Shown here: positions 8,677 to 25,987 of the stretch, one piece after another
Layout of the letters: every line of letters starts with the position of its first letter
Position numbering within the stretch: the first letter of the stretch is position 1
Assembly (NCBI GenBank): GCA_964500725.1
Contig: CAZCNP010000002.1
Location: forward strand, 69,347 to 133,346
Source of the DNA: an uncultured Gammaproteobacteria bacterium
Lineage (GTDB): Bacteria > Patescibacteriota > Microgenomatia > Daviesbacterales > UBA10151
Reading direction: 5' to 3'
DNA: 64,000 bases
Program-made: the position numbers and the translations under genes
The notes under the pieces: generated by a model
The model's input: only the letters and a program-made list of their open reading frames with translations
Databases searched by the model: none
What the model was told of the DNA's origin: nothing

Positions 8677-9827
8677 TTAAATAGTGAGATATTTGGAATT
8701 GGAGCTACATTGGCAATTAGGAAATTTTGGGCATACAGATATGTAGCCAAAAGTATTATAGGAAGTATTATTTTAAATTCTCGGCTGGTTAAAACTTTTT
8801 CAAAAGAAATCAACACAAAAGGGGCAGCAGGTAGTAGGTAACGGCTAATATCTCGATGAGCAACTAAGGAAGAAGCAGCCAAATAGGTTAAAACAAAAAA
8901 TGCCAAAGGGTACAGTTTTTGCTTTAACAGTGTAATTCCACCTAATAGTATTAACATAAAGATATAGACAACATCTTCAAGCCAAATATCTCCTACCCAA
9001 AATTGTTGCTTATTAAATACTTGGAATGGAGGAAAAGTTAAATGAATATTATCACCGCTATGAAAATATGCCCAAAAATCACCATAAGTTTGTCCGTATA
9101 AATAAAATACTCCGAAAAGACTTAATGGGATAAGGAGTAAAGCGGAATATTTTGCTATCGAAGTAAATATTGATACTTGTTGTTTGAGTAATTTCCACAA
9201 AATATACAAAGACAAAGCTATAAATAGTAAAATCCCAGGAGGTCGTGTGATTTGAGCCAGAGCACCAAAGATAGCTGTTAGAAAAATATTTATACTATTA
9301 TGTGACTGTTCAAACTTCATAAAAAAATAGACAGCAGTAATAATAAAGAATATAAAAGTAGGTTCTGATGATCCTACACTATGGACAATTAGCCATCTGG
9401 CAGGTAAGACCAGGAATATAAAAGATAAAAAAAGCGGCTGGTTGGTGAGTTTAAAATCCTTCACTAATAAGTAAAACATCCAAGCGGCGCCAATAGTGGA
9501 TAGCAGAGAAATAAATAACATTGATTTTAAATACCCCAATAGAGGGGCGAGAATATAAATTAAGATTGAATACCCAGGAAAATGAGAGGCAAAATAATTG
9601 GCTGGTAGGGCTTGTCCTAAAGCAGCTATAGAGGCAGGGTTGTAGAAAGTTTTGGCGATAATAATATATTCCAGTCCGTCATAGTTTCGGTAAATGGTGC
9701 TGAAGCCCTCTTTAAAGTTTAATCCCCAAAAATTAGGCATAGCCAGGATATGGGGTAACCAAATTATAAGGGTGATTATAATAGCCAGAGAAGCTAAGAT
9801 AAGGCAGTCTTTTGCAGATTTAACCAT
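8673..9827 (-). CDS. Polytopic membrane protein, putative GT-C glycosyltransferase (PIG-V / GPI mannosyltransferase 2 family-like).
   Basis: About 10 predicted TM helices. First external loop has RNYDGLEYIIIAKTFY, resembling the WDxxHF..IA..GY signature of PIG-V-type mannosyltransferases. Assignment is tentative. Confidence 0.5.
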   Translation of the reverse strand: MVKSAKDCLILASLAIIITLIIWLPHILAMPNFWGLNFKEGFSTIYRNYDGLEYIIIAKTFYNPASIAALGQALPANYFASHFPGYSILIYILAPLLGYLKSMLFISLLSTIGAAWMFYLLVKDFKLTNQPLFLSFIFLVLPARWLIVHSVGSSEPTFIFFIITAVYFFMKFEQSHNSINIFLTAIFGALAQITRPPGILLFIALSLYILWKLLKQQVSIFTSIAKYSALLLIPLSLFGVFYLYGQTYGDFWAYFHSGDNIHLTFPPFQVFNKQQFWVGDIWLEDVVYIFMLILLGGITLLKQKLYPLAFFVLTYLAASSLVAHRDISRYLLPAAPFVLISFEKVLTSREFKIILPIILLATYLYAQNFLIANVAPIPNISLFN

Positions 9828-9876: not shown

Positions 9877-12072
9877 ATGAAGGTTGATTCTTTATCGGTT
9901 TTTTTTCCATGTATTAATGAAGAGGGTAATATTGAAAGCACTGTCTCGCAAGCTGAGACCGTTTTAAAAAAGCTTAAGCTAAAATATGAAATTATTGTTG
10001 TTGATGATGGCTCAACAGACAAGACAGGGGAGATTGCCGATAAATTAGCGAAAGAAAATTCTCATATTAGGGTGATTCATCATCCGAAAAATTTAGGTTA
10101 CGGCGAAGCATTAAAATCGGGTTTCTATAGCGCTAAATACGACGTTATAGTCTATACAGATGGAGATAGACAGTTTGATTTTTCCGAGGTAACTAAATTT
10201 TTAGAAAAAATTAAAGACTCAGATATGGTAATAGGTTATAGAATAAAAAGGCAAGATTCATTTTTGAGAAAACTATTTGGCAGGGGTTGGAGATTGACGC
10301 TATTTACTTTCTTTGGTTTGACGCTGAAGGATGTAGACTGTGGTTTTAAGATGGTGAGAAAAAGTGTGATTGAAAAAATACCTCATCTTGAATCACAAAG
10401 AGGAGCAATGATTAATGCAGAACTGGCAATTAAGGCAAAAAAGTTTGATTTTAGAATAACTCAAGTAGGAGTAAATCATTATCCTAGATTATCAGGTAAG
10501 CCAACAGGAGCAAATATTCAAGTGATAATCAAATCTTATATAGATTTAGTTAAACTTTGGTGGAAACTAAAAGATGAAAAGCTGCTATTTGCTAGTTTAA
10601 TTTTTGTATTGTTTTTAGCAGGTTTTTTCAGGTTTTACAAAATCTCTGAGTACATGACTTTTTTAGGGGATGAGGGACGTGATGCAATTGTTATAAAAAA
10701 AATACTGACAAATTATGACTTACCTTTGATTGGACCTCCAACTTCCGTAGGTAATATTTATTTGGGGCCGCTTTATTACTATCTAATGACGCTTCCGATG
10801 GCAATTTTCTACCTTAACCCTGTAGCTGCTGCTGGCATGAATGCCTTTTTTGGTGTGGCAACTGTGCTGTTTATTTACTATCTTGGTAAAAACTGGTTTG
10901 GCAGGTTTGCAGGCTTAGTAGCAGCTTACTTATATGCTATATCGCCAGTGACAGTAATCTACTCAAGATCCTCCTGGAACCCCAATCCTACTCCTTTTTT
11001 CTCGCTGCTTACTATTTTTGGATTCTATAAAGCTTATGAGTCAAAAAACTTTAAGTGGTTAATTTTAACAGGGATAGGAGCAGCAGCAGCAATACAAATG
11101 CATTATTTAGCGTTGATTTTACTGCCAATTATTGTAGTTGTTTGGATTAAGGCGTTATTAAGTAATTTAGCAGAGAACAAATATAGGGCCTTTTGGGCAG
11201 GGACAATTCTTGCAGTTGCATCTTTTCTATTCTTGATGTCTCCACTTGTAGTTTTCGATATAAAACATAACTTCTTAAATTATCGAGCAATTACTGAGTT
11301 GTTTTCCAATAATGATACGGCGGTAAGTTTTAATCTATTGAATACATTAAGTAAGATTCCCGCAATATTCAGTAATAATTTGATCGGAAGATACATTGCT
11401 GCAGAGAATAGTTTTTTACAGCAGCTAGTTGCGTTACTGGTTCTGATGCCTCTTGCTGGGGCTACTTATCAAGTATATAAAAACCGCTTGATAAATTTTG
11501 GCTTATGGATATTAAATACCTGGTTGTTAATTGGGGTATTAGGGTTGAGTTTTTATAAAGGGAGTATTTACGATCATTACTTAGGGTTTTTAAATCCTGC
11601 TCCTTTCTTGCTTTTGGGGGGAGTTGTATTTTTGATATCTTTAGCGCCAAAAAGGATTAGATGGCTAGGTAACGGAGGAGTGTTTATAATGCTTATTACT
11701 TTGACAATAGTTAATCTTCAAAAATCTCCACTTTTGAAACCTCCAAACAATCAGTTAATAAGAACTCAGCAAGTGGCTAAGTTTGTTATTAATGAGGCAA
11801 AAGGAGAAGACTTCAATTTTGCCTTGCTTGCTGCTAGGAATTATGATTCAGCATACCAGTATTATCTAGATATTTATGGACATAAACCTCAACAAGTACC
11901 GTTTGAAATTACAGATCAATTATTTGTAGTTTGTGAGGATGCTATATGCCAGCCTATTAATAATGCTAAATATGAGATTGCAGGTTTTGGTTGGGCTAAA
12001 GTGGTAAGCGAGCAGAACATATACGGGGTAAAGGTTTTTAAATTAGTGCATAATCCATCTGGTAAACCATGA
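9877..12072 (+). CDS. Bifunctional fusion: N-terminal DPM1-like GT2 and C-terminal ArnT/PMT-like GT-C membrane glycosyltransferase.
   Basis: Residues 1-230 are GT2 (FFPCINEEGNI, VVDDGSTDKTGEIA, DGDRQFD). Residues about 240-731 are polytopic, with LGDEGRDAIVIKKIL and GPLYYY in the first external loop, typical of ArnT/PMT-type GT-C enzymes. Confidence 0.8.
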   Translation: MKVDSLSVFFPCINEEGNIESTVSQAETVLKKLKLKYEIIVVDDGSTDKTGEIADKLAKENSHIRVIHHPKNLGYGEALKSGFYSAKYDVIVYTDGDRQFDFSEVTKFLEKIKDSDMVIGYRIKRQDSFLRKLFGRGWRLTLFTFFGLTLKDVDCGFKMVRKSVIEKIPHLESQRGAMINAELAIKAKKFDFRITQVGVNHYPRLSGKPTGANIQVIIKSYIDLVKLWWKLKDEKLLFASLIFVLFLAGFFRFYKISEYMTFLGDEGRDAIVIKKILTNYDLPLIGPPTSVGNIYLGPLYYYLMTLPMAIFYLNPVAAAGMNAFFGVATVLFIYYLGKNWFGRFAGLVAAYLYAISPVTVIYSRSSWNPNPTPFFSLLTIFGFYKAYESKNFKWLILTGIGAAAAIQMHYLALILLPIIVVVWIKALLSNLAENKYRAFWAGTILAVASFLFLMSPLVVFDIKHNFLNYRAITELFSNNDTAVSFNLLNTLSKIPAIFSNNLIGRYIAAENSFLQQLVALLVLMPLAGATYQVYKNRLINFGLWILNTWLLIGVLGLSFYKGSIYDHYLGFLNPAPFLLLGGVVFLISLAPKRIRWLGNGGVFIMLITLTIVNLQKSPLLKPPNNQLIRTQQVAKFVINEAKGEDFNFALLAARNYDSAYQYYLDIYGHKPQQVPFEITDQLFVVCEDAICQPINNAKYEIAGFGWAKVVSEQNIYGVKVFKLVHNPSGKP

Positions 12073-12806
12073 AAAAGATATCTATTGTTATTCCTGCATA
12101 TAATGAGACAGCTAATTTAAAAAGAGGAGTGTTGTTAGAAGTAGGGAAGTATTTGGACCAACTTAAACTGGATTATGAAGTGATTGTAGTAGATGATGGT
12201 TCTTCGGATCAGAGTGTTGAAATAATTAAAAAATATATATCCAAAAATGAAAATTTCAAACTCCTTCAAAATTCTCATGGAGGAAAAGCCAATGCGGTAA
12301 TGACAGGTATGCTTAGTGCGGCAGGAGAAATTATATTATTTACGGATATGGATCAAGCTACGCCCATTAATCAAATCGAAAAGTTCCTGCCTAAATTTGC
12401 TAATGGTTTTGATATTGTGATTGGATCACGTCAAGGGAGAAAAGGAGCGCCTTTAGTTAGAAAATTATCAGCATGGGGTTTTTCTTTGCTGCGCGCAGTG
12501 ATTTTAGGATTACCTTTTAAAGATACCCAGTGCGGTTTTAAAGCATTTAGTAAAAGTGTGGTTGATAAATTAATACCCAAGATAAAAAGTGAATGGGGAG
12601 TAGTTCATTTTAAGGGTGGGGCAGTTAATGCGGGGTTTGATGTTGAGCTTTTGTACCTAGCTAAAAAGTATGGTTTTAGGATTGCTGAGGTTGAGGTGGA
12701 GTGGAAATATGTTGACACTGAAAGGGTGCAAGTTGTTAAAGATGCAGCAGCAGCAATTTATGATATGTTCAGAATAAGGTTGAATGATTTGAGGAACAAA
12801 TACTGA
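12069..12806 (+). CDS. GT2 glycosyltransferase, DPM1-like (polyprenyl-phosphate hexose synthase-like).
   Basis: ISIVIPAYNETANL, VVDDGSSDQS, FTDMDQATP (DxD). Soluble, 245 aa. ATGA overlap with the upstream gene. Confidence 0.85.
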   Translation: MKKISIVIPAYNETANLKRGVLLEVGKYLDQLKLDYEVIVVDDGSSDQSVEIIKKYISKNENFKLLQNSHGGKANAVMTGMLSAAGEIILFTDMDQATPINQIEKFLPKFANGFDIVIGSRQGRKGAPLVRKLSAWGFSLLRAVILGLPFKDTQCGFKAFSKSVVDKLIPKIKSEWGVVHFKGGAVNAGFDVELLYLAKKYGFRIAEVEVEWKYVDTERVQVVKDAAAAIYDMFRIRLNDLRNKY

Positions 12807-12861: not shown

Positions 12862-14385
12862 GTGAAGCTCCTGTTGCAACATAAGATTGAAATTTTAATT
12901 CTTTTCTTGCTAGCTGTTTTGTACTTTGCTCTGCGGTTACCAAATTTAACACTGCAGCCTATCTTTGCAGATGAGGCAATCTATATCAGATGGGCGCAGG
13001 TGATGAAAGCAGAGTCTACCTTACGGTTCTTACCTTTATCTGATGGCAAAACCCCTCTTTTTATGTGGGTTTTAATTCCTGTTTTCAAATTTATTAATGA
13101 CCCACTCCTTGCAGGAAGATTTGTATCTGTAGCAGCAGGTTTTTTTACATTGCTAGGAGTATTTTTTCTGTCCAAAAAAGTTTTCAATATAAAAACTGCC
13201 TTGTGGGCATGTTTGTTATATGTAATAACCCCTTATGCTGTTTTTTTTGATCGGATGGCTTTAGTTGATTCGATGCTTTCAGCTTTCACTATTTGGTCAG
13301 TATATCTTGCGATACTTCTTGCTGGTAATTTGAGATTTGATACCTCGATGGTCTTAGGGTATTTGCTTGGTGGCGCTTTACTTACCAAGACTCCTGCTAT
13401 GATTAACCTGTTGCTTCTTCCAATTACCATATTGGGGTTCAGAAATGAAAAGAAAACAAAAAATACTTTTCTTAAATTAGTATTGCTATGGGGGCTAGCG
13501 ATTATCATAGCCTTGGTTATGTATAATACTTTAAGGCTTGGACCTAATTTTCATCTGCTTTCATCAAGAAATGCTGATTATATTTTCTCCCCATTAGAAC
13601 TTTTAGGAAGACCTTTAGATCCTTTTATACCTCATTTTAATGATATCGCTGATTGGTTTCCAAAACTGTTTACCTGGCCGATTTTACTTTCAGGGCTGAT
13701 GGGAATTGCCTATCTGATTTTTGGATTATGGCAACAATCCTTTAGAGGACCACTGCTTAAGGGATTGGTAATATTGCTTTGGGCTTTAATACCGCTTCTG
13801 TTAAACATGACGTTTTTAAAAACTTTTACCTCCCGCTACCTTTTACCCTCAATCCCTACTTTTCTTATTTTAGCTGGTTTTGGGATAACTAAATTATTGC
13901 CAAGGTTGGCTTATATAAAGAGGTTTCCTCTGGCATTAATGTTGATAGTGGTTTTGCCGCTTCCTTTATACTTTAATTATTTATTACTAACCTCACCTGA
14001 TAAAGCTCCTTTACCTAGGGAAACAAGAGAAGGATATTTTGAAGCATGGACAGCAGGATATGGATTTTCTGATATTGCCGAATTTATAAAGGAGAAAAGT
14101 AAAACTCAAAAAGTAGTAGTGGGTACAGAAGGCTTTTTTGGAACTTTGCCAGATGGGTTGTATATTTATTTGGATAAATCAAATGTTTCTTTTGTTGGCT
14201 CTCATGCTACTATCTCTGCTCAAATTAGAGAGGCAGCCAAGGATAATTTAGTATATTTTGTTGGTAATAAAAAGAGGGTTCAAGGCAGTGTTAGTAATGT
14301 AATTTTAATTAAAGAATATCCAAAAGCCAAACCAAAAGATAATTCTCCTCAAGATGCAACAGTTTTATATCAAGTATTGCCGTAG
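12862..14385 (+). CDS. ArnT/PMT-family (GT83/GT39-like) GT-C membrane glycosyltransferase.
   Basis: GTG start. First loop has IFADEAIYIRWAQ (DE catalytic motif). About 11 TM helices followed by a C-terminal soluble domain of about 120 aa. Confidence 0.7.
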   Translation: MKLLLQHKIEILILFLLAVLYFALRLPNLTLQPIFADEAIYIRWAQVMKAESTLRFLPLSDGKTPLFMWVLIPVFKFINDPLLAGRFVSVAAGFFTLLGVFFLSKKVFNIKTALWACLLYVITPYAVFFDRMALVDSMLSAFTIWSVYLAILLAGNLRFDTSMVLGYLLGGALLTKTPAMINLLLLPITILGFRNEKKTKNTFLKLVLLWGLAIIIALVMYNTLRLGPNFHLLSSRNADYIFSPLELLGRPLDPFIPHFNDIADWFPKLFTWPILLSGLMGIAYLIFGLWQQSFRGPLLKGLVILLWALIPLLLNMTFLKTFTSRYLLPSIPTFLILAGFGITKLLPRLAYIKRFPLALMLIVVLPLPLYFNYLLLTSPDKAPLPRETREGYFEAWTAGYGFSDIAEFIKEKSKTQKVVVGTEGFFGTLPDGLYIYLDKSNVSFVGSHATISAQIREAAKDNLVYFVGNKKRVQGSVSNVILIKEYPKAKPKDNSPQDATVLYQVLP

Positions 14386-14391
14386 CTTTTT

Positions 14392-16092
14392 ATGTATAAA
14401 TTTTTAAATAAGGATTTTCTTTTCCCAGTTTTTATTATTGTTTTAACTGTCCCCCTTTTTTCATCGCTTGCCCGTCCTGGTTTTTTTCCGATGCAGGATG
14501 ACTTGCAAGCTTTTAGGGTGCAACAGATGACAAAGTGTCTACAAGATTTTCAAATTCCTTGCAGGTGGATTCCAGACATGGGTTACCAATACGGTTATCC
14601 GCAGTTTAACTTTTACCCTCCCAGTGTATTTTATCTTGGAGGGGTATTAAACCTTCTAGGTATACAAGTGGTAGATAGTGTAAAAATCTTATTCATGTTA
14701 GGGTTTTTGCTTTCAGCTATGACGATGTATATTTTTTTGAAAGCCTTAATAGGGAATTGGTCTGCATTTGTGGGAGCAATCCTTTATAGTTTTGCGCCGT
14801 ATAAAGCAGCGGAAGTTTATGTTAGAGGATCTTTGAGTGAGTTTTGGGCTTTTGTATTTTTTCCACTTATTTTTTGGTCGACCCTGCAGCTTATTAAATT
14901 GGGCAAGTTAAAATACCTTTTATGGCTGTCGGTTTCCATAGGCCTGCTTTTGATTACCCACAATCTAATGTCCTTTATTTTTCTGCCTCTTTTTACTGTT
15001 TGGGCGCTTGCAGTCTCATTCGTTTGGAAAAGATGGGGGGCTCTTCCCAAGGTGGTTGCTGGTTCTTTATTAGGAGCAGGCTTGGCTGGGTTTTTTATTC
15101 TGCCAGTAATATTAGAAGGAAAATACGTACATCTGGAAACTTTAACAGGAGGATATTTTGATTGGCGCCAACATTTTGTCAGCTTACAGCAGCTTTTTTT
15201 ATCTAATCATTTTGGATATGGCTCTTCCTACTTGGGACCAAATGATGATCTGGCGCTTTCAGTTGGAGTTGTGCATTGGATGTTGGGAGCGATAGCTATT
15301 ATTTTTTCTGTATTAACTTTTAAAAAGGAAAGAAAGGTTGCCAGTTTAGTCTTTATATTATCAATTTTGGAACTGATTGTAGTATTTTTAATGCATCAAA
15401 AATCCACCTTTATTTGGGAAAGCATACCTTATTTAAAATGGTTACAATTTCCTTGGAGGTTTTTATCAGATAGTGTTTTTTTGTTATCTATATTGGGCGC
15501 AATTGCCGTCTATTTTATAGGCAAATTTAACACAAAGCTTGAGGTAGTTTTGAGTGTAGTTATAATCTTAAGTTTGATTTTACTGCATGGGTCATTTTTC
15601 CAACCTAAGGAGTGGTTTGATATTTCAGATCAAGAAAAGTTTTCCGGACAGTCTTGGGAAAAGCAATTGACAATTAGCATTTTTGATTATCTGCCAATAT
15701 ATGCCAAACTGCCGCCGAACAAAAAAGCCCCATCCTTACCGGAAGTTCTAGATGGGGAAGCAATATTTATAAATTATAAAAAGGGAAGTAATTATCAGGA
15801 AGGTTTAATTGAAGTAAAAAATAAAGCCACGATTAGGCTGCCACTATTTGATTTTCCTGGCATGGAAGTTACAGTTGATCAAAAAAAGGTAAACCACAGG
15901 CATAATGATTGCAGAAAACAGGAATATTGCTTGGGTCTTATTACCTTTGATGTTGATAAAGGAAAGCATGCTTTAAAAGCTAAGCTTGAGGATACCTTAG
16001 TTAGAACATTAGGTAATATAATTACTTTAGGCAGCTTTTTTATTGTTGCAGGGGGAGTATTTCTCCAAAGCAGAAAAAATGAAAAATCTTAG
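14392..16092 (+). CDS. Tandem paralog 1 of a polytopic membrane protein family with an HDD / Cys-Cys / GYP-FN-Y motif; putative GT-C glycosyltransferase.
   Basis: FFPMQDDLQAFRVQQMTKCLQDFQIPCRWIPDMGYQYGYPQFNFYPP in the first extracytoplasmic loop. Conserved FPWRFL mid-motif. C-terminal soluble domain ending in an LxDTxVRT motif. Confidence 0.7.
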   Translation: MYKFLNKDFLFPVFIIVLTVPLFSSLARPGFFPMQDDLQAFRVQQMTKCLQDFQIPCRWIPDMGYQYGYPQFNFYPPSVFYLGGVLNLLGIQVVDSVKILFMLGFLLSAMTMYIFLKALIGNWSAFVGAILYSFAPYKAAEVYVRGSLSEFWAFVFFPLIFWSTLQLIKLGKLKYLLWLSVSIGLLLITHNLMSFIFLPLFTVWALAVSFVWKRWGALPKVVAGSLLGAGLAGFFILPVILEGKYVHLETLTGGYFDWRQHFVSLQQLFLSNHFGYGSSYLGPNDDLALSVGVVHWMLGAIAIIFSVLTFKKERKVASLVFILSILELIVVFLMHQKSTFIWESIPYLKWLQFPWRFLSDSVFLLSILGAIAVYFIGKFNTKLEVVLSVVIILSLILLHGSFFQPKEWFDISDQEKFSGQSWEKQLTISIFDYLPIYAKLPPNKKAPSLPEVLDGEAIFINYKKGSNYQEGLIEVKNKATIRLPLFDFPGMEVTVDQKKVNHRHNDCRKQEYCLGLITFDVDKGKHALKAKLEDTLVRTLGNIITLGSFFIVAGGVFLQSRKNEKS

Positions 16093-17737
16093 AATTGCTT
16101 ATTGGCCACTATTGGTGATTTTGGTTTTATCAGCGCTAATTGTTTGGCCGCTTTTTTTGCCTGGGTATTTTTCTCACCATGATGATTTGCAGGTAATGAG
16201 AATATTTGAGATGAGAAAATGCTTGCAAGATTTGCAAATTCCCTGCCGTTGGGTACCAGATATGGGATATGGTAATGGTTATCCTCTATTTAATTACTAC
16301 AATCCTTTTCCATATTATTTAGGTGGAGTTTTAAGCTTTTTTCTGGGATTTATAGTATCAGCAAAAATTTTATTTTTTATTCCGCTGGTATTAGGTGGTT
16401 TTTCGATGTATCTTTTTGTTAAAGAAATATTTGGTAAAGAGCCAGCGCTTTTGGCAGCTGTTTTGCATCTTTTTGCTCCATATAGAGCACTGGACTCTTA
16501 TGTTAGGGGAGCAGTGGCAGAAAGTTTTGCTATAGCGCTGATCCCACTAGTTTTATATTTTGCTTTAAAACTTATCAAAGAAAATACAAAAAAATATTTA
16601 ATCTATCTGGCAGTTACTTTGGCAGCATTTTTGACCAGTCACACAATTATGACAATGTTATTTTTACCGGTATTATTAAGTTTAATATCTTACTGGGTAT
16701 GGGTAGAAAAAAGGGGTTTTTATGTAATATTTGGGCTGCTTTTAGGGATTGGATTATCAGCATTTTTTACCCTACCTGCATATTTTGAAAAAAACTTAGT
16801 CCAGATAGATAATTTAGCAAGACTGGATTTAGATTTTAGAGCACATTTTGTCACATTACCTCAGCTTTTTTTAGATAGATCATGGGGGTATGGAGCTTCT
16901 TTTTCCGGCCCTTCAGATACCATATCTTTTCAAGTAGGTTGGCCCCACTGGATTTTAGTTTTTTTATCTATACCTTTGGTATTAATATTAAAAAGAAAAA
17001 ACACTAAACTTCTAGTTTTTTATCTGGGAACCTTAATAGTTTTTATGTTATCAATTTTTATGACCCACAATAAGTCAGCATTTATCTGGGAAAAGATTGG
17101 ACTTTTAAGATTTACTCAATTTCCTTGGAGATTTTTGTCGGTGACAATTTTTACTACATCAATATTGGGGGCATTCTTAATCTATGCTTTAAATCAAAAA
17201 TTAAAAAAAGTGTTAACTATTATTTTAGTTATTATAATAGCTGGTCTTAATTGGAATTATTTCAGGCCTTATCAATTTATCTTTGGTTTGACAGATCAAG
17301 AAAAGCTGTCTGGGAAAGAGTGGGAAACACAGCAAAAAGCTTCTATTTTGGATTACTTGCCTGTTGGAGCCAGAGAGCCGATAGAACCTGCTCCGAATGA
17401 GCCTATTATCAGAAAAGGTCAGGCCAAGACTGACTTTTTTGAGAAAAGATCTAATAGCTGGAAGTTGGGTATAGATGTAAAATCTACCTCAGAAGTAGAA
17501 ATTCCAGTGATAGATTTTCCTAATTGGAAAGTTTTTGAAAACGGAAAAGAGATTAAACATTCAAATGATAATTTTGTAAAAAGGATTAGTGTGAATTTGT
17601 CTCCAGGCAAACACTTACTTTTGGGAAAACTGACAGATACACCGATTAGAACTATTAGTAATGTTATTTCTCTCTTATCTTTACTGGTTGTTTTTTACCT
17701 AATCTTTTATGATGGAAGCAGAAAAATTTTTAAATAA
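16079..17737 (+). CDS. Tandem paralog 2 of the HDD/Cys-Cys family; putative GT-C glycosyltransferase.
   Basis: YFSHHDDLQVMRIFEMRKCLQDLQIPCRWVPDMGYGNGYPLFNYYNP, FPWRFL, LTDTPIRT. Start at the internal Met (MKNLRIAYWP) to minimise overlap. Confidence 0.7.
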   Translation: MKNLRIAYWPLLVILVLSALIVWPLFLPGYFSHHDDLQVMRIFEMRKCLQDLQIPCRWVPDMGYGNGYPLFNYYNPFPYYLGGVLSFFLGFIVSAKILFFIPLVLGGFSMYLFVKEIFGKEPALLAAVLHLFAPYRALDSYVRGAVAESFAIALIPLVLYFALKLIKENTKKYLIYLAVTLAAFLTSHTIMTMLFLPVLLSLISYWVWVEKRGFYVIFGLLLGIGLSAFFTLPAYFEKNLVQIDNLARLDLDFRAHFVTLPQLFLDRSWGYGASFSGPSDTISFQVGWPHWILVFLSIPLVLILKRKNTKLLVFYLGTLIVFMLSIFMTHNKSAFIWEKIGLLRFTQFPWRFLSVTIFTTSILGAFLIYALNQKLKKVLTIILVIIIAGLNWNYFRPYQFIFGLTDQEKLSGKEWETQQKASILDYLPVGAREPIEPAPNEPIIRKGQAKTDFFEKRSNSWKLGIDVKSTSEVEIPVIDFPNWKVFENGKEIKHSNDNFVKRISVNLSPGKHLLLGKLTDTPIRTISNVISLLSLLVVFYLIFYDGSRKIFK

Positions 17738-19388
17738 ATACTCTTTTTTGATAATATTTTTATTATCAATTCCTGCAGCTTGGGCTCTTTTTGTGCCAGG
17801 GTTTTATGGGGCGTCTGATGATATTCATATAGCCTGGTTAAATCAATTTCACAAGACTTTGATGATGGGTCAAATCCCGCCCAGATTTGTTCCTGATTTA
17901 AGTTTTGGGTTCGGTTATCCTTTATTTAATTTTGTCTTTCCTTTACCATTTTATATAGGAGAGAGCTTTCACCTGTTAGGACTGTCGCTGGTTGATAGTA
18001 TAAAAGCAGTATTTTTTATTAGCATCCCCTTGTCAGGAATATTTATGTATTTGCTGCTGAGGCAATTTACTACAGTTAGCTTTAGTTTAGTGGGAGCAAT
18101 ATTGTATATTTACACCCCTTATAGGGCAGTAGATCTTTATATCAGGGGAGCAATAGGGGAGATTGTTAGTTTTGCAATACTGCCTTTGATACTATTATCA
18201 GTTATAAAAATTATTAAATTTCAATCTATAAGGTGGGTTGGAATAGGAGCACTCTCTCTCGCTTCCCTAGTCTTGTCGCATAATATTACTGCTTATATGT
18301 TTTTTCCTTTTGTAGGATTGTTTCTGATTATACAGATTCTGTTTTTACCCACAAAATGGAAAATTATCCAGCAAACCTTTTTGATGATAATTTTGGGACT
18401 TTTGATCAGCATCTATTTTTGGTTGCCTGCAATAGTGGATAGCGGTCTTATGAAATATGATACTGTTTTTAATTTCTCAGATCATTTTCCCACCATTTTA
18501 CAACTTATTAAACCCTATTGGGGTTACGGCGGGTCTGTTCCTGGGCCTTATGACGGGATGTCATTCTTTTTAGGAGGCGCCAATGTTTTGATTTTGATTT
18601 TTGGTATAGTTATCCTTTTGCTGAAGTGGAAAAAGATTGAAATTGAAAAGAAAATATTGCTAAGTTGGGCTTTGACAGTAATTGCTGTTTCTGTTTTTCT
18701 AATGAATCACCGCTCAGCTTTTGTTTGGGCAAGTGTTCCGATGTTGCCATATTTTCAATTTCCCTGGAGATTTTTAATTTTAACCACCTTTTTTATTCCG
18801 CTTTTAGTTATAGTTTTGGAACAGTTTAAATATAAAAAGTACTTACCTTGGGTTTTGTTGGCAGTAATAGTCGTACCAGCAATATCATACTTTTACCCTC
18901 AAGACTTTTTGGGTAGAAAAGATGAATACTTTCTTAATCGTTATGTTCCTTACCCAACCGCCAGTGAGGAATATAAAAAGACCCAAGAAGAATATCTGCG
19001 GCTGCCAAAGAATACACAAATAAGGCCTGATAAGATTTATCCTGTGGTAACTGGAAATAATTTAAATATTCAGCAGTTAAAAATATTAAATCAGTTAAAT
19101 AGTGTTTTCAAGGTAGAATCAGACAGACAGACAACAGTAAACTATAATAAATATTTTTTTCCAGGCTGGGCAGTTACGGTGGATAATAAAAGAGTTGATG
19201 TTAAAGCAGGATCCCCTTTTGGTCAAATTACTTTTACAGTTCCTGCAGGTGCGCATATGGTAAGAGTTAGTTTTGAGGAAACTCAAGCTAAGAGAGTGCT
19301 GGATGCTATATCTTTGGTTAGTTTTTTAGTATCATTAGGTTTGATTAAAAGTTTATGGATTCGATCAAAAAAAGCTGGCCTTTCTTAG
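17709..19388 (+). CDS. Tandem paralog 3 of the same family (most divergent; lacks the Cys pair).
   Basis: FYGASDDIHIAWLNQFHKTLMMGQIPPRFVPDLSFGFGYPLFNFVFP, FQFPWRFL. Same length and predicted topology. Confidence 0.65.
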   Translation: MMEAEKFLNKYSFLIIFLLSIPAAWALFVPGFYGASDDIHIAWLNQFHKTLMMGQIPPRFVPDLSFGFGYPLFNFVFPLPFYIGESFHLLGLSLVDSIKAVFFISIPLSGIFMYLLLRQFTTVSFSLVGAILYIYTPYRAVDLYIRGAIGEIVSFAILPLILLSVIKIIKFQSIRWVGIGALSLASLVLSHNITAYMFFPFVGLFLIIQILFLPTKWKIIQQTFLMIILGLLISIYFWLPAIVDSGLMKYDTVFNFSDHFPTILQLIKPYWGYGGSVPGPYDGMSFFLGGANVLILIFGIVILLLKWKKIEIEKKILLSWALTVIAVSVFLMNHRSAFVWASVPMLPYFQFPWRFLILTTFFIPLLVIVLEQFKYKKYLPWVLLAVIVVPAISYFYPQDFLGRKDEYFLNRYVPYPTASEEYKKTQEEYLRLPKNTQIRPDKIYPVVTGNNLNIQQLKILNQLNSVFKVESDRQTTVNYNKYFFPGWAVTVDNKRVDVKAGSPFGQITFTVPAGAHMVRVSFEETQAKRVLDAISLVSFLVSLGLIKSLWIRSKKAGLS

Positions 19389-21058
19389 TGGGTTTGGTTT
19401 TATCAGTAAGTTTGCTTTGGCCTCTATTTGTTGCTCCTTTGTTTGCCCATCATGATGATGTGCAGGTGATTAGGCTTTATGAGATGGATAAATGTTTTAA
19501 GGATGGCCAGATCCCTTGCAGATGGGTGCCTGATTTAGGTAATTTGTATGGGTATCCTCTATTTAATTATTATGCTCCACTTCCTTATTACTTTGGGGAA
19601 TTGATTCTTAATCTAACGCGGAGCTTGATAATTTCAGTTAAGGTTATGTTTGCCGTGGCTTTTTTAGGTTCCTACATTTTTATGTATCTTTTAACAAAGA
19701 AATTTTGGGGAGTTTTGGGAGGAAGCTTATCTGCAATATTTTATACTCTTATACCCTATCATGCCTTAGATTTCTACGTTAGGGGCGCAATGGGTGAGAT
19801 GTGGGGATTGATGTTTTTTCCAGCTGTGCTTTGGAGCTTATATAGACTTTATGAAAAAGGAAATATTGCCAATACAACACTTTGCGCAGTATTTATAGCA
19901 GGGCTTTTAACTTCACACAACCTTTCATCCATGCTTTTTATACCTATTGCTATTGTTTGGGTATGGTTTCTGTTTTTTCAAAAGCCAGTTAAAAAGTTTT
20001 TGGTGTTTGTTTTAATTTCTGCAGTGTTAGGTATTTCTCTTGCCTCGTTTTATTTGTTTCCTATGTTACTGGAGAAAAATTTAGTGCATGTTAATACCAC
20101 CACTTATGGTTATTTTTCATACACGGAACATTTTAAAGGATTTAAAAAGTTATTTTTAGATAGATCTTGGGGGTGGGGAGCATCAGTCAGGGAAGTTCCA
20201 GGAGGTGAAAAAGACGGTTTATCTTTTCAAATTGGCTGGGTGCATCTTTTAGGGTGGATATTGGCTGTGATTGCAGCCTGTCAATTGTGGAAGAAGCAAA
20301 GATTTTTAAGCCTAGCAATCGTTCTTTCTTCGACAGTTATCCTATTTAGTATTTTTATGGTACATCCTAGGTCAGAATTTATTTGGAAAAGCATTGAACC
20401 TTTAAAGTTTCTTCAATTCCCTTGGAGATTTTTAATGCTAATCTCCTTATTTATTTCTTTTTGCGTAGGTAGCGCATTACTTTTAGTTAAAAGAAAGATT
20501 GTGATGTGGTTGGGACTTGTGATTGCTGTTTTTGTTTTTAATTTTTCTTACTTCCGTCCAGAAAAATTTTTGTTTATTACAGACAAAGATCTTTTACAGG
20601 GTTCCAATTGGGACCGGCAGATCAAAAGATCCATTTTTGATTACCTGCCTATATACGCCAAAGAACCGCCAGCAGAGCTTGCAAGCGCAAGGTATGAAAT
20701 TATCACAGGAGATAGTAAAATTTTTGATTTCAATGAGGGAACCAATTGGTTTAATTTTAAAACTGAGACCAGTTCTCATACTATCATCCGTTTGTCGCAG
20801 TATTATTTTCCTGAGTGGAAAATATATTTAGACGGCAAGGAAGCACAAGTAGAGTATACAAATAACAGCTTAGGGTTGATGACACTAATTTTGGGAAAAG
20901 GAAATCACAAAATTACGGCAAGACTTTATGATACACCAGTAAGATCTGCGTCAAATATAATAACCGCAGTAGGTTTTATAGTAACTATAATATTATTTTT
21001 AACCTCTATTGAAAGGGTCCGCCATTGGATTGCATATTATAAAAAAAGGATGAATTAA
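19355..21058 (+). CDS. Tandem paralog 4 of the HDD/Cys-Cys family; putative GT-C glycosyltransferase.
   Basis: LFAHHDDVQVIRLYEMDKCFKDGQIPCRWVPDLGNLYGYPLFNYYAP, FLQFPWRFL, LYDTPVRS. Confidence 0.7.
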   Translation: MDSIKKSWPFLVGLVLSVSLLWPLFVAPLFAHHDDVQVIRLYEMDKCFKDGQIPCRWVPDLGNLYGYPLFNYYAPLPYYFGELILNLTRSLIISVKVMFAVAFLGSYIFMYLLTKKFWGVLGGSLSAIFYTLIPYHALDFYVRGAMGEMWGLMFFPAVLWSLYRLYEKGNIANTTLCAVFIAGLLTSHNLSSMLFIPIAIVWVWFLFFQKPVKKFLVFVLISAVLGISLASFYLFPMLLEKNLVHVNTTTYGYFSYTEHFKGFKKLFLDRSWGWGASVREVPGGEKDGLSFQIGWVHLLGWILAVIAACQLWKKQRFLSLAIVLSSTVILFSIFMVHPRSEFIWKSIEPLKFLQFPWRFLMLISLFISFCVGSALLLVKRKIVMWLGLVIAVFVFNFSYFRPEKFLFITDKDLLQGSNWDRQIKRSIFDYLPIYAKEPPAELASARYEIITGDSKIFDFNEGTNWFNFKTETSSHTIIRLSQYYFPEWKIYLDGKEAQVEYTNNSLGLMTLILGKGNHKITARLYDTPVRSASNIITAVGFIVTIILFLTSIERVRHWIAYYKKRMN

Positions 21059-21062
21059 GTTT

Positions 21063-22535
21063 ATGGACGAAAGCGTTGAACAGACTGATCCCACAGAAGA
21101 ATTGGCGCCAGATGCTATAAGCAAACAAGTTAAAAAGGGTGTAGCAATATTAACCTTTCGGACAATAATTATTCAAGCAATTTCATTTTTTTCAAATGCC
21201 TTACTAACAGTATTTCTTTTACCAGTGGAATACGGGGTATTTTTTCTTGTATCTGCCGTAATAAACTTTCTTGCCTATTTTAGCGATATTGGATTTGCTG
21301 CCAGCTTGATTCAGAAAAAGAAACTTGAACACGATGATCTAAAGACAGTGTTTACAGCGCAGCAAATTTTGGTATTAGGGCTAATAGTTATAGTTTTATT
21401 GATGACTCCTTTTATAAGTAGTTTTTATAAGTTTGATCAGGCAGCTTTATACCTGCTTTGGGCGCTAGCTTTATCTTTAGTTTTCTCTTCCCTTAAAACA
21501 ATACCTTCAGTTTTGCTGGAAAGAAAATTGGAATTTAACAAATTGGTTATACCTCAAATTATCGAAACTATTGTTTTTAGTATAACTACTGTTTATCTTG
21601 CCTGGAAGGGCTTTGGGGTGACCAGTTTTACAATTGGAGTAATTGCTAGGGGGTTTTTTGGTTTGGTAGCCACATATATAGTTTCTCCTTGGGTGCCTAA
21701 GATTTCCTTTTCTACCGAGTCTTTCAGATCAATAATGAAGTTTGGGATCCCATACCAAGCAAATACATTTTTGGCGATGATAAAAGATGATGGTATGACA
21801 TTGTTTTTAGGTGGCATTTTGGGAGCAGGGGGAATTGGACTTCTGGGATGGGCTCAGAAGTGGGCTTATGCTCCTCTGAGATTTTTTATGGATCAAGTAA
21901 TAAAGGTTACTTTTCCAGCTTTTTCTAGATTACAGGATAATAGAAAGGAATTATCAGATTTGGTAAGTAAATCAATCTTTTTTATCTGTTTTCTAGTTTT
22001 TCCTTCACTTGTTATGCTATTACTTTTAGCGCCAACTTTAGTAACGATTATTCCAAAATACATTAAATGGAGCCCAGCGCTCTTTGCATTATCTGTCTTA
22101 ACAGTTACCTCAGGGTTGGCTGCAATTACTACACCTTTGACTAATACCTTAAACGCTATAGGTAAAATATCCCTGACTTTTAAGTTTATGATTATGTGGA
22201 CAGTACTGACTTGGGTTTTTGTTCCCCTTCTTGCTTATCTTTACGGCTTAAATGGCGCTGCAATTGGATTTACATTAGTAGGTTTTAGTTCTTTTGTAGC
22301 ATTATATCTAGTATCTAAGTATGTAGATATAAACTATCTTCAAAGTGTTGGAAAGCCTTTACTTGCTTCGGCAGTTATGGGAATTTTTGTTTTTATTATA
22401 AAAAATATTTTACTTGTATCATGGCAGCAGATTATCGTTATGGTTGGTGTTGGCGCAGTTGTATATTCATTGATGATGATTATGGTTGAACCAAAGCTTT
22501 TACTACTAATTAAAGATCAATTTAAAAAGAAGTAA
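21063..22535 (+). CDS. Wzx-like oligosaccharide / polysaccharide flippase (MOP superfamily).
   Basis: 490 aa, about 14 TM helices, polysaccharide-biosynthesis-protein architecture (FLAYFSDIGFAASLIQKK, C-terminal hydrophobic repeats). Confidence 0.7.
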   Translation: MDESVEQTDPTEELAPDAISKQVKKGVAILTFRTIIIQAISFFSNALLTVFLLPVEYGVFFLVSAVINFLAYFSDIGFAASLIQKKKLEHDDLKTVFTAQQILVLGLIVIVLLMTPFISSFYKFDQAALYLLWALALSLVFSSLKTIPSVLLERKLEFNKLVIPQIIETIVFSITTVYLAWKGFGVTSFTIGVIARGFFGLVATYIVSPWVPKISFSTESFRSIMKFGIPYQANTFLAMIKDDGMTLFLGGILGAGGIGLLGWAQKWAYAPLRFFMDQVIKVTFPAFSRLQDNRKELSDLVSKSIFFICFLVFPSLVMLLLLAPTLVTIIPKYIKWSPALFALSVLTVTSGLAAITTPLTNTLNAIGKISLTFKFMIMWTVLTWVFVPLLAYLYGLNGAAIGFTLVGFSSFVALYLVSKYVDINYLQSVGKPLLASAVMGIFVFIIKNILLVSWQQIIVMVGVGAVVYSLMMIMVEPKLLLLIKDQFKKK

Positions 22536-25500
22536 TGAAGAAACTAATATTTCTATTATTGTGCTTGCTGTCAACATTTATTGCCCCTGTAGCTTTTGCT
22601 CAAGGCAATTCTTTTGTCTCAATTGTAAACCCTGTCAGGGGTGATGATTTCTGGGACTTAAAAGATCAAAAGATAGAGACTGCAGTATTAGGACAAATAG
22701 AAATTTTAAATAACTTTACCTTGCCTGCTACATGGTTGATAAGATTTGATGCTTTGGATGAGGGTAGGGTTATCAGAGAATTAAAAAATAGATATCAGGA
22801 CGAAAAGGGTTTATTTTTAGAGGTTACTCCAACTTGGGCTGAAGCAGCGGAAGTTAAATACCGTAAATCCAGTAGTTGGCATGCAGCAGGTAGCGCTTTT
22901 TTAACAGGGTATGAAAGAGATGAAAGAGAAAAACTAATAGATAAAAGTTTTGAAAGGTTTGAAAAAGTCTTTGGATATTTCCCAAAATCTGTAGGAGCAT
23001 GGTGGATAGATAGTTACTCCTTAGACTATATGCAGAATAAATATGGAATAACCTCTGGTTTAATAGTTGCAGACCAGTATACAACTGATAATTACCAAAT
23101 TTGGGGTCAATACTTTTCCACTCCTTATTATCCTGATAAGAAGAACGCTCTTCATCCAGCCCAATCAGAGGAGAATAAAATCCCAGTAGTCTTGTCTCAA
23201 TGGGCAGCAAGGGATCCTGTTAATGGGTATGGAAATGGAGTTTTTGAAAGCACGTTTAGTGTACAACCGAATGATTATATTGATTATCACGAGCTGGATA
23301 CTAATTATTTCTCCAAACTTGTTAATTTATACACAAATCAAGGAATTAATCAATTTGGAGCAATTGTAGTAGGACTGGAAAATACTTACGATTGGAATAA
23401 ATACCAAAATGAGTATAAAAATCAGATCAGCTTTTTAAAACAAAGAAATCAGAAAGGTTTGTTAAGCGTTGTAACATTAGGAGATTTTGCTGATTGGTAT
23501 CAAAAAACTTTTCCCCAAGTTTCTCCAGAGCATGTAATTGTTGCAGATGATCCTCTGGGTTTAAATAAAAAAGTAGTCTGGTTTATGAATCCTTATTATA
23601 GAGTTGGGTGGTTTTATAATAATGACGGAAGTGTGATTAGGGATATCAGGCAATATGTAGAAGGTGAAGAAGAGATCTGTTTTCAAAAAAGCTGCAGTGA
23701 AGTTAACTTTGCAACTTTTGCAACAAGAGTTTTGGATGAGGTAACTTACGGACATAAATTGCTAATTGATGAAGGTGAAATTTCTGATTTTAAAGCTTCA
23801 AGAATAGAGGAAAAGATTAGGATTAGTTATCTAAATGAGGCAGGCAAGCACAGAACAGTTGAATTTTTACCAAGAGATATCAGCATTGATGGAAAAATTT
23901 CCTCTATTGATAGAACTATTCTTGATGCAATTAAGCAGGATACTTCGGAGCAAAACAAACAGACTGATTTTAAAGAAGGAAGTTTTAGCTGGAGTATTGC
24001 AGGAGTGCTATCAAAATCAATTAAGTTTTTATTTTTTTTACTGATAGTTTGTTTGGCGCCAGGACTGATTTTTGCTCATAAATTAATTAAGGAAAATGAA
24101 TTTTTAGCATTAAAGATATTTTTAGCGCTAGTTATTGGAATTGTTTTGTTGACAGTAATGTTTTATATAACAAGCGCATTAAATTTAAGACTATTGCTAC
24201 CTTTGTATATTTTGGCAGCTTTATTATTTTTTATCAAAACTAAACAATTTACTCTGTTTCAGATTAAGCCTCCTAAAGCAATAGACAAACTACAAATAGC
24301 AGCTGTAATTGTAGTTATTTTAGGCACAATTTTTCAAAATATCCCCACTTTCAAAAGTGGTTTAACTTTTTCTTTTGGAATGGGTTTTTGGGGACCCAAT
24401 ACACATGATGGAATCTGGCATATCAGTTTAATAAATCAGTTGATTGCAGGTTTCCCAGTTGAAAACCCAATTTATGCAGGCACTGTGTTAAAAAATTATC
24501 ATTTTTTCTATGATTTGTTAGTTGCATCAGTTGCCTTGATTACTAGACTTCCTGTTGTTGATTTGGTTTTTAGGTTCTTTCCTTTACTTTTTTCTTTATT
24601 ATTAGGGCTTGGTACTTATTATCTTGCAATAAAGCTTTTTACAAGTAGAGTTGGAATAGTAAGAGCAAAAATAGCTGCAATTTTTAGTTTATATTTTGTT
24701 TATTTTGCAGGAAGTTTTGGTTGGATTGTAGAATATATAAAGCAAAAAAGTTTTGGCGGGGAGTCTGCATTTTGGGCAAATCAAGCAATTTCATATAATC
24801 TTAATCCTCCGTTTGCGGTTTCGCTTTTAATAATAATCGCTCTTGTTTACTTGTTGATTATGCATCAGAGAAGAAGTCTATATTGGATATTTACAACAGT
24901 TTTATTGACTGGAAGTTTGATAGGCTTTAAAGCATATGGTGCAGTTTTAATACTAGTATCTTTGTTTGCAATATCAATAGTACATATTTTAAAAAAGGAT
25001 TTTTCATATTTTTTTGTTTTTGTTTTTTCTTTAATTATTACTTTAATAATATTTTTATCAAATTTTGAGCAAAGCGAACAGCTGATTGTTTTTTCTCCTT
25101 TTTGGTTTATTCATTCAATGATAGATTCTCCAGATAGAGTCGGTTGGATTAGGTTAACGATGACTAGAATTGTGGGTTTCCAAACACAGAACTATTTAAA
25201 AATATTTTATGCTGAAGGTTTAAGTCTGCTGATTTTTATTGCTGGAAATTTGGGGATGAGAATATTAAGTCTTTTTTTGCTGCTTAAAATAAAAAGCATC
25301 TCTTCCTCTGGAGGACTTATTATATTAATATTTTCCTTAGCCTCATTTTTAATTCCAACACTCTTTATTCAATCAGGTAATCCTTGGAATACAATTCAAT
25401 TTACTTATTACGGTCTTTATATGACAGCAGTCATTAGCGGTTTGGTGCTATCCTCTTTATTTTTTAGTATTCCTAAGCTGTTATCTATTTTACTAATAAT

Positions 25501-25987
25501 ACCAATATTAATACTAACTCCTATAAATTCAATTACCACAGCCTCTTATTATACGGGTTTTTTGCCTCACGGAAGAGTTGATCATAAAGAATTACAAGCT
25601 CTACATTTTTTATCTTACCAGGATGATGGTGTTGTGCTTACAGTTCCATATGATAAAAAATTAAGGAGTAAAGTTTCAGAACCTTGGCCGCTGTTTATAT
25701 ATGATAGTACTGCTTATGTGTCTGCTCTATCTAAAAAAAGTGTTTACCTGGAGGATGAGCCGCAAAACCAAATCCTTTTGACAGATTACACGAAAAGGTT
25801 AGTCACATCAAAAGACTTTTTCTTAAGACCTATATCAGAAAATCTACAATTCTTAAAAGAGAACAGGATAAAATATATTTATATTCCAAAAATATACAAT
25901 CTAAGACTTGATGAAAGTTCTGGGACAATAATGAACCTTTTCGAGAACGAAGAAGTGGTGATTTATAAAGTGGTCAAATTAGTATGA
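22535..25987 (+). CDS. Large 1150-aa protein: signal peptide, extracytoplasmic domain of about 480 aa of unknown (possibly carbohydrate-active) function, then a polytopic HDGIWHI-motif membrane domain.
   Basis: Signal peptide MKKLIFLLLCLLSTFIAPVAFAQG. C-terminal half has about 14 TM helices with FWGPNTHDGIWHISLINQLIAGFPVENPIYAGTVLKNYHFFYDLL, shared with the next ORF. Confidence 0.6.
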   Translation: MKKLIFLLLCLLSTFIAPVAFAQGNSFVSIVNPVRGDDFWDLKDQKIETAVLGQIEILNNFTLPATWLIRFDALDEGRVIRELKNRYQDEKGLFLEVTPTWAEAAEVKYRKSSSWHAAGSAFLTGYERDEREKLIDKSFERFEKVFGYFPKSVGAWWIDSYSLDYMQNKYGITSGLIVADQYTTDNYQIWGQYFSTPYYPDKKNALHPAQSEENKIPVVLSQWAARDPVNGYGNGVFESTFSVQPNDYIDYHELDTNYFSKLVNLYTNQGINQFGAIVVGLENTYDWNKYQNEYKNQISFLKQRNQKGLLSVVTLGDFADWYQKTFPQVSPEHVIVADDPLGLNKKVVWFMNPYYRVGWFYNNDGSVIRDIRQYVEGEEEICFQKSCSEVNFATFATRVLDEVTYGHKLLIDEGEISDFKASRIEEKIRISYLNEAGKHRTVEFLPRDISIDGKISSIDRTILDAIKQDTSEQNKQTDFKEGSFSWSIAGVLSKSIKFLFFLLIVCLAPGLIFAHKLIKENEFLALKIFLALVIGIVLLTVMFYITSALNLRLLLPLYILAALLFFIKTKQFTLFQIKPPKAIDKLQIAAVIVVILGTIFQNIPTFKSGLTFSFGMGFWGPNTHDGIWHISLINQLIAGFPVENPIYAGTVLKNYHFFYDLLVASVALITRLPVVDLVFRFFPLLFSLLLGLGTYYLAIKLFTSRVGIVRAKIAAIFSLYFVYFAGSFGWIVEYIKQKSFGGESAFWANQAISYNLNPPFAVSLLIIIALVYLLIMHQRRSLYWIFTTVLLTGSLIGFKAYGAVLILVSLFAISIVHILKKDFSYFFVFVFSLIITLIIFLSNFEQSEQLIVFSPFWFIHSMIDSPDRVGWIRLTMTRIVGFQTQNYLKIFYAEGLSLLIFIAGNLGMRILSLFLLLKIKSISSSGGLIILIFSLASFLIPTLFIQSGNPWNTIQFTYYGLYMTAVISGLVLSSLFFSIPKLLSILLIIPILILTPINSITTASYYTGFLPHGRVDHKELQALHFLSYQDDGVVLTVPYDKKLRSKVSEPWPLFIYDSTAYVSALSKKSVYLEDEPQNQILLTDYTKRLVTSKDFFLRPISENLQFLKENRIKYIYIPKIYNLRLDESSGTIMNLFENEEVVIYKVVKLV

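Follow-up and report, generated by a model that had tools for sequence, protein, structure and literature searches.

A tandem quartet of probable GT-C-fold glycosyltransferases of the PF10131 family in a Microgenomates bacterium

YfhO enzymes operate in systems composed of a GT-A glycosyltransferase, a flippase and a GT-C enzyme, in which sugars are passed from C55-P-sugar to teichoic acids or to Ser/Thr-rich protein regions outside the membrane, and one of their external loops bears an acidic motif (PMC8035078, PMC12041528). The PF10131 family (PTPS_related) is counted in Pfam among the families of GT-C clan CL0111, where it is described as of unknown function (PMC7801869). Here, four consecutive genes (c1 to c4, the quartet) were analyzed, located at positions 14392-21058 of a 64,000-nucleotide stretch of contig CAZCNP010000002.1, referred to below as the window, which comes from a Candidatus Daviesbacteria (Microgenomates, Patescibacteria). 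The quartet very probably encodes paralogous GT-C-fold glycosyltransferases of PF10131 related to YfhO, and thus represents a known, uncharacterised family and not a new one.

The quartet and its family

The genes of the quartet and their principal motifs are as follows.

14392-16092, forward strand: copy c1, open reading frame (ORF) of 566 aa; PF10131 36.3 bits, YfhO 33.3 bits; MQDD at aa 34-37 (DD at nt 14497-14502), Cys49/Cys57, QFPWRFL at aa 352-358
16079-17737, forward strand: copy c2, 552 aa from ATG, the copy used for the structural model; PF10131 65.0 bits; HHDD (DD at nt 16181-16186), Cys48/Cys56, QFPWRFL at aa 347-353
17709-19388, forward strand: copy c3, 559 aa, more diverged than the other three; PF10131 36.7 bits; ASDD (DD at nt 17817-17822), T50/P58 at the positions of the Cys pair
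19355-21058, forward strand: copy c4, 567 aa; PF10131 31.9 bits; HHDD (DD at nt 19454-19459), Cys47/Cys55

All four ORFs are polytopic, lie on the same strand and range from 552 to 567 aa. Overlaps of 14, 29 and 34 nt were found for c1/c2, c2/c3 and c3/c4, respectively, and these suggest co-expression. The first overlap would extend to 50 nt with an alternative TTG start of c2 at 16043 (564 aa); the form starting with ATG at 16079 is that of the protein database. Pairwise identities of 29-40% over about 550 aa (BLASTP, E 1e-72 to 1e-128) were far past chance, in agreement with the first-pass annotation of this DNA, which had described tandem, overlapping paralogs of equal size.

The motifs GYPxFN, YxRGxxxE and QFPWRFL were common to all four copies, two of them having been noticed previously as a GYP-FN loop and FPWRFL. 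Other details of that annotation required correction. In the proposed HDD motif the DD is invariant, and the His is present only in c2 and c4; the absence of His from c3 was therefore read correctly, but it is not peculiar to this copy, as c1 also lacks it. The spacing of the loop cysteines is C-x7-C (KCLQDxQIPC) and not C-x8-C, while their joint loss from c3 was confirmed. A C-terminal DTP(V/I)R motif was found in c2 (DTPIR) and c4 (DTPVR) but not in c1 (DTLVR) or c3 (ETQAK), and in the model it does not end a soluble domain but marks the beginning of the final transmembrane (TM) helix (aa 522-551 in c2). On the whole, the earlier interpretation was partly supported.

Family assignment was based on Pfam. 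All four copies scored above the PF10131 gathering threshold of 26.4 bits (model length 621 positions). For YfhO (PF09586, threshold 28.5 bits), c1 exceeded the threshold and c2-c4 gave no match at E<=1; c1 orthologs also showed a weak YfhO match. A test against the PTPS-related and YfhO families, proposed in the first-pass annotation, thus proved positive, and its assignment to the GT-C type was borne out by the clan membership of PF10131 and by the structural matches given below. PMT_2 (PF13231, CAZy GT39-like, threshold 26.1 bits) was matched by c2 with 29.2 bits and, below threshold, by c4 with 18.1 bits, with no match for c1 or c3; the most reasonable interpretation is cross-matching within the clan.

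The profile built from the quartet matched 18,106 clusters (50% identity) at E<=1e-3 and 5,906 at E<=1e-30. Nearly all homologs listed were already annotated with PF10131, and some bear the NCBI name 'glycosyltransferase family 39 protein'. No NCBIfam model matched any quartet protein, and a search of PDB sequences with the quartet profile returned only chance matches (prion protein, E ~1).

The confidence expressed above applies to the explanation as a whole. The analysis shows the fold and family membership, the topology and sidedness of the model, and how residues, orthologous positions and synteny are conserved. That a lipid-phosphate-sugar is the donor, what the acceptor is and how labour is divided among the copies we infer.

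Modelled fold, topology and conserved residues

The model of c2 was compared with solved structures. The scores were 20.0 for AglB, 19.1 for STT3B, 18.8 for Pmt4 and 18.7 for AftD, followed by 17.6 for ALG12, 17.5 for AftA, 16.5 for ArnT and 15.2 for PglB. The 20 best structural matches were all GT-C proteins, and Foldseek was in agreement. Sequence identity between the quartet and solved GT-C structures was 10-14%, so low that no close homolog can be regarded as solved. The WWDxG motif was not found in the quartet proteins; together with a C-terminal domain of another type, this led to rejection of an oligosaccharyltransferase (OST) identity.

Model helices and the distribution of Lys and Arg residues predict 12 TM helices, the N- and C-termini both being cytoplasmic. 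Lys and Arg gather where helices are predicted to end in the cytoplasm; the conserved polar residues all lie on the outer side. In c2, the DD is situated between TM1 (aa 9-26) and an amphipathic helix of external loop 1 (EL1; aa 38-50). Facing outward in the modelled c2 are D35/D36, the disulfide loop, GYPxFN, K96 (close to the external end of TM2), YVRGxxxE (loop 2), H188, E237, H256, the S333...W337...QFPWR351 loop and a beta-sandwich (aa 395-521) followed by the terminal TM helix (522-551).

Conservation was scored by profile position in 150 representatives that were mutually less than 50% identical. Within the acidic dyad, D37 was conserved in 97% and D38 in 67% (Asn in 12%). Values for the remaining positions were 100% for R59, 99% for P71, 93% for K99, 97% for both R146 and E151, 99% for H191, 95% for E243, 94% for H262 and 90-99% for QFPWR (353-357). 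The model places a putative active site outside the cytoplasmic membrane, formed by the DD after TM1, the first loop with its predicted disulfide staple (R59, D63, GYPxFN), K99 (TM2), R146/E151 (loop 2), H191, E243, H262 and the QFPWR loop. The acceptor glycan probably binds to the extracytoplasmic beta-sandwich, which is anchored by the last TM helix.

The loop cysteines were either both present (89 representatives) or both absent (64); in none of the 153 was one found alone. This covariation is strong evidence, at the level of sequence, for a structural disulfide and hence for an extracytoplasmic position of the loop. The distribution of Lys and Arg agrees, and the earlier suggestion of a disulfide on the outside is thereby supported.

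Within every one of the four ortholog groups, conservation reached 100% at D37, K99, R146, G147, E151, H191, S339, W343 and QFPWR, so no copy looks dead. Copy c3 carries Trp at profile position 43, where Arg is conserved in the family, and retains every other candidate catalytic residue. Its interpretation as a pseudoenzyme was rejected, since D37, K99, R146, E151, H191 and QFPWR are kept at 100%.

Conservation of the array and its surroundings

Of 529 confirmed relatives in species-representative genomes, the 80 best were examined, and 57 loci with full flanks were available. The 80 all belonged to Patescibacteria/Microgenomates (Daviesbacteria, Woesebacteria, Shapirobacteria, Blackburnbacteria). 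The order c1-c2-c3 was found in 30 of the 57 loci and c1-c2-c3-c4 in ten; six carried a single copy and 11 another arrangement, so that copy number varied between related genomes. The c1 ortholog group was represented in 56 loci, and c4 was present in ten of the 57.

Copies in the same position were 53-72% identical between genomes, whereas different copies shared 26-39%. Each ortholog group also had its own loop signature: MQDD with the Cys pair for c1, HHDD with the Cys pair for c2 and c4, and ASDD without Cys for c3. Since orthologs recur at matching places from genome to genome, the sequences indicate that the duplications are ancient and that the core order c1-c2-c3 is fixed across Microgenomates. 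Copy c4 is, by the same comparisons, placed as a later addition in a subset of loci, including Daviesbacteria-labelled ones. Recent duplication, already doubted in the first-pass annotation, and assembly artefact were both rejected, as position-matched orthologous copies recur in many genomes.

Outside the window, fusion proteins (P0121, P0122, P0143, P0127) were found with 2 to 6 PF10131-like modules per polypeptide. In P0121, a c2-like module is followed by a c3-like module, matching the gene order of the window. Such multi-module fusions could partly be frameshift or gene-calling artefacts. Fusions of GT2 with PF10131 also occur elsewhere, including P0158 with a PgfS/ArnC/DPM-like GT2.

Many species-representative metagenome-assembled genomes with a Microgenomates-type locus (L009, L011, L013 and others) are titled 'uncultured Gammaproteobacteria bacterium'. 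These titles look like placeholders or wrong taxon labels.

The array is flanked by the following genes.

7489-8676, forward strand: fusion of GT2 with a TM domain of GtrA/DPMS type (Pfam), syntenic with the array in four related loci (L003, L005, L006, L007); by sequence a candidate polyprenyl-phosphate-sugar synthase plus flippase module
8673-9827, reverse strand: weak PMT_2-like protein
9877-12072, forward strand: GT2-PMT_2 fusion, a cytoplasmic GT-A domain with a GT-C domain (Pfam); best NCBIfam relatives ArnC-, PgfS-, AglJ- and dolichyl-P-hexose-transferase-like, all under cut-offs
12069-12806, forward strand: soluble GT2, 245 aa; closest curated relatives PgfS, ArnC and DolP-hexose transferase, all under equivalog cut-offs
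12862-14385, forward strand: PMT_2-type GT-C (Pfam PMT_2 45.2 bits), directly upstream of c1, syntenic
21063-22535, forward strand: Wzx/MOP-family flippase (Polysacc_synt_3 188 bits; NCBIfam MOP flippase 166 bits, under the 273-bit cut-off), directly downstream of c4, syntenic
22535-25987, forward strand: polytopic protein of 1150 aa, directly after the Wzx flippase
25984-27972, forward strand: polytopic protein of 662 aa; structural model STT3/AglB/PglB-like GT-C with an AglB-like C-terminal domain

In related loci, the quartet, the GT2 genes, Wzx and the last two genes were kept as a conserved co-directional block. Genes resembling rmlABCD and GDP-mannose dehydratase lie upstream of the array. 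No phosphoglycosyl transferase was found among the window ORFs of at least 120 aa.

The downstream 662-aa protein and the last 660 aa of its 1150-aa neighbour are paralogous (31% identity). Neither gave a Pfam match even at E<=10, nor an NCBIfam or PDB sequence match, and the best 120 homologs were all unnamed and domain-free. Comparison of the pair with the quartet profile by hhalign was not significant (probability 1.7%). Their GT-C nature is thus predicted from structure only. The pair is a more novel lead than the quartet.

The N-terminal ~500 aa of the 1150-aa protein (22535-24030) begin with a hydrophobic N-terminus, MKKLIFLLLCLLSTFIAPVAFAQG, and gave no Pfam match. This is apparently a secreted, soluble domain fused ahead of the STT3-like membrane domain. 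The ortholog of the 1150-aa protein in locus L005 showed a weak DUF3863 match.

At least 15 ORFs of the 64-kb window, the quartet and the two STT3-like genes included, have a GT-C clan Pfam match or a GT-C-fold model, an unusually high density. The window also contains about ten GT2 genes and four genes of GT1/GT4 type, one of them methyltransferase-fused. A carbamoyltransferase, rmlABCD-like genes and two flippases of the Wzx type are likewise present. A second paralog family comprises six PMT_2-type GT-C proteins of ~490-556 aa that are mutually 22-37% identical. The further features are listed below, on the forward strand unless indicated.

9877, 12862, 27969, 33480, 34963 (reverse), 38028, 39695 and 42952: starts of PMT_2-type genes
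8673 (reverse) and 32372: weak PMT_2 matches
46325: PIG-V-like gene
59428-62139: sub-threshold AftD-like match
27969-29594, 33480-34949, 34963-36588 (reverse), 38028-39698, 39695-41251 and 42952-44550: second paralog family
41261-42880 (reverse), 539 aa, and 50710-52521 (reverse), 603 aa: ORFs that gave no Pfam match at E<=10 and lack a paralog elsewhere in the window

Proposed mechanism, alternatives and known systems

Judged from sequence, a GT-A, flippase and GT-C set appears to be co-encoded by the quartet together with 7489-8676, 9877-12072, 12069-12806 and 21063-22535. In the proposed mechanism, the neighbouring cytoplasmic GT2 enzymes would load sugars onto polyprenyl phosphate, and the GtrA-type domain and/or Wzx would flip the lipid-linked sugars across the membrane. 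Each GT-C paralog would then pass one sugar to an extracytoplasmic acceptor, which may be a cell-surface glycopolymer, a lipid-linked glycan or a protein. The copies are considered non-redundant because they form ancient, position-conserved ortholog groups that all carry the catalytic residues. On these sequence grounds they most likely catalyse four different steps, differing in sugar, linkage or acceptor position, and they may be physically associated.

Several observations weigh against this explanation. The PF10131 alignment is limited to model positions 1 to ~312 of 621, corresponding to TM2 to about TM11 of the protein; it begins at GYPxFN, leaving TM1, the DD loop and the C-terminal beta-sandwich outside the model. 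Together with the modest scores of 32-65 bits, this marks the quartet as divergent PF10131 members as far as sequence tells. Structurally, oligosaccharyltransferases are the nearest matches and the adjoining flippase is of Wzx type, which makes polyprenyl-PP-oligosaccharide a conceivable donor beside polyprenyl-P-monosaccharide. The upstream GT2 genes have polyprenyl-phosphate sugar synthases as their best curated matches, far under equivalog cut-offs. Promoter and terminator scans of the region showed no surplus over shuffled sequences and were uninformative. Literature on PF10131, PTPS_related, COG5617 or '6-pyruvoyl-tetrahydropterin synthase-related' yielded only one mention as part of a Pfam clan and two entries in transcriptome lists, none of them functional studies; a search for GT-C enzymes or surface glycans of candidate phyla radiation (CPR) bacteria or Microgenomates found nothing relevant.

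The copies could alternatively be obligate subunits of one hetero-oligomeric GT-C complex that carries out a single coupled reaction or a small number of them, such as the processive extension of a polymer. Hetero-oligomeric GT-C complexes are exemplified by Pmt1-Pmt2 and EmbA-EmbB. The fixed gene order, the conserved overlaps between genes and the in-frame c2-c3-like and multi-copy fusions elsewhere point in this direction, and head-to-tail fusion is topologically feasible with both termini modelled in the cytoplasm. However, a complete candidate catalytic set is kept in all four groups, one-copy and two-copy loci occur, c4 is dispensable in most lineages, and the fusions carry the reservation on gene calling mentioned above. 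Obligate association is therefore regarded as credible but doubtful. A complex of this kind would be compatible with the proposed glycosyltransferase quartet.

A wider proposal includes the downstream pair. The array c1-c2-c3(-c4) would be an extracytoplasmic assembly line extending a flipped lipid-linked oligosaccharide from polyprenyl-phosphate sugars, followed by en bloc transfer by the adjacent STT3/AglB-like pair (22535-27972). This would amount to an ER-like 'outside maturation plus OST' glycosylation of protein or polymer in Microgenomates (CPR). A precedent is the stepwise elongation of lipid-linked oligosaccharide in the lumen of the endoplasmic reticulum (ER) by ALG3/9/12/6/8/10. This scheme is speculative and, at present, unlikely.

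It is quite unlikely that the quartet uses polyprenyl-diphosphate oligosaccharides, as en bloc transferases, ligases or polymerases (OST/PglL/WaaL/Wzy-like) acting on a Wzx-flipped glycan. The lack of WWDxG, a beta-sandwich C-terminal domain unlike the OST periplasmic domain and the better suitability of the downstream pair as OST candidates all make such a donor less likely. Moreover, the mono-phosphate users Pmt4, AftD, ALG12 and ArnT score almost as high structurally, the three upstream GT2s best match polyprenyl-P-sugar synthases, GT2-PF10131 fusions exist, and the window ORFs of at least 120 aa include no phosphoglycosyl transferase. Finally, a truly new GT-C family, as the first-pass annotation had it, is highly improbable because the quartet belongs to the catalogued PF10131 of the GT-C clan, whose threshold all four copies pass and which nearly all listed homologs carry, with YfhO and PMT_2 each above threshold in one copy.

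Members of CPR/Microgenomates have small genomes and are thought to be host-attached, so that glycans of the cell surface probably play a central part in their biology. What is new here is the conserved, ordered trio or quartet in Microgenomates, together with a signature for each copy, the covarying disulfide, a map setting candidate catalytic residues on the outer face and the fusions elsewhere. With its candidate catalytic residues and covarying disulfide, the c1-c2-c3(-c4) array offers clean targets for the first biochemistry and structure of PF10131. Knowledge of GT-C enzymes is otherwise unchanged by the quartet, a well-supported and fairly ordinary superfamily member.

Compared with PF10131 at large, the quartet is a divergent, Microgenomates-centred branch in an ordered tandem array. 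It resembles the YfhO proteins (YfhO of B. subtilis and S. aureus, Listeria Lmo1079, streptococcal PgtC2 and PgfM1) as a related GT-C family, with c1 above threshold and PgfS among the best matches of the neighbouring GT2 genes. It differs in length (~560 aa against an 835-position YfhO model, with c2-c4 under threshold), in its host, a CPR bacterium, and in comprising three to four ordered paralogs, whereas YfhO is one gene paired with one GT2. From STT3/AglB/PglB, PMT, ArnT and AftD the quartet is separated by its low identity, the missing WWDxG and a C-terminal domain consisting of a small beta-sandwich with a terminal TM anchor. In the comparison with the lumenal ALG3/9/12 and ALG6/8/10 and the mycobacterial Aft/Emb enzymes, the results for the quartet do not single out a lipid-linked oligosaccharide or an arabinan-like polymer as acceptor. 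To our knowledge, the paralogs of the ALG and Aft/Emb series do not lie in one ordered overlapping operon, unlike those of the quartet.

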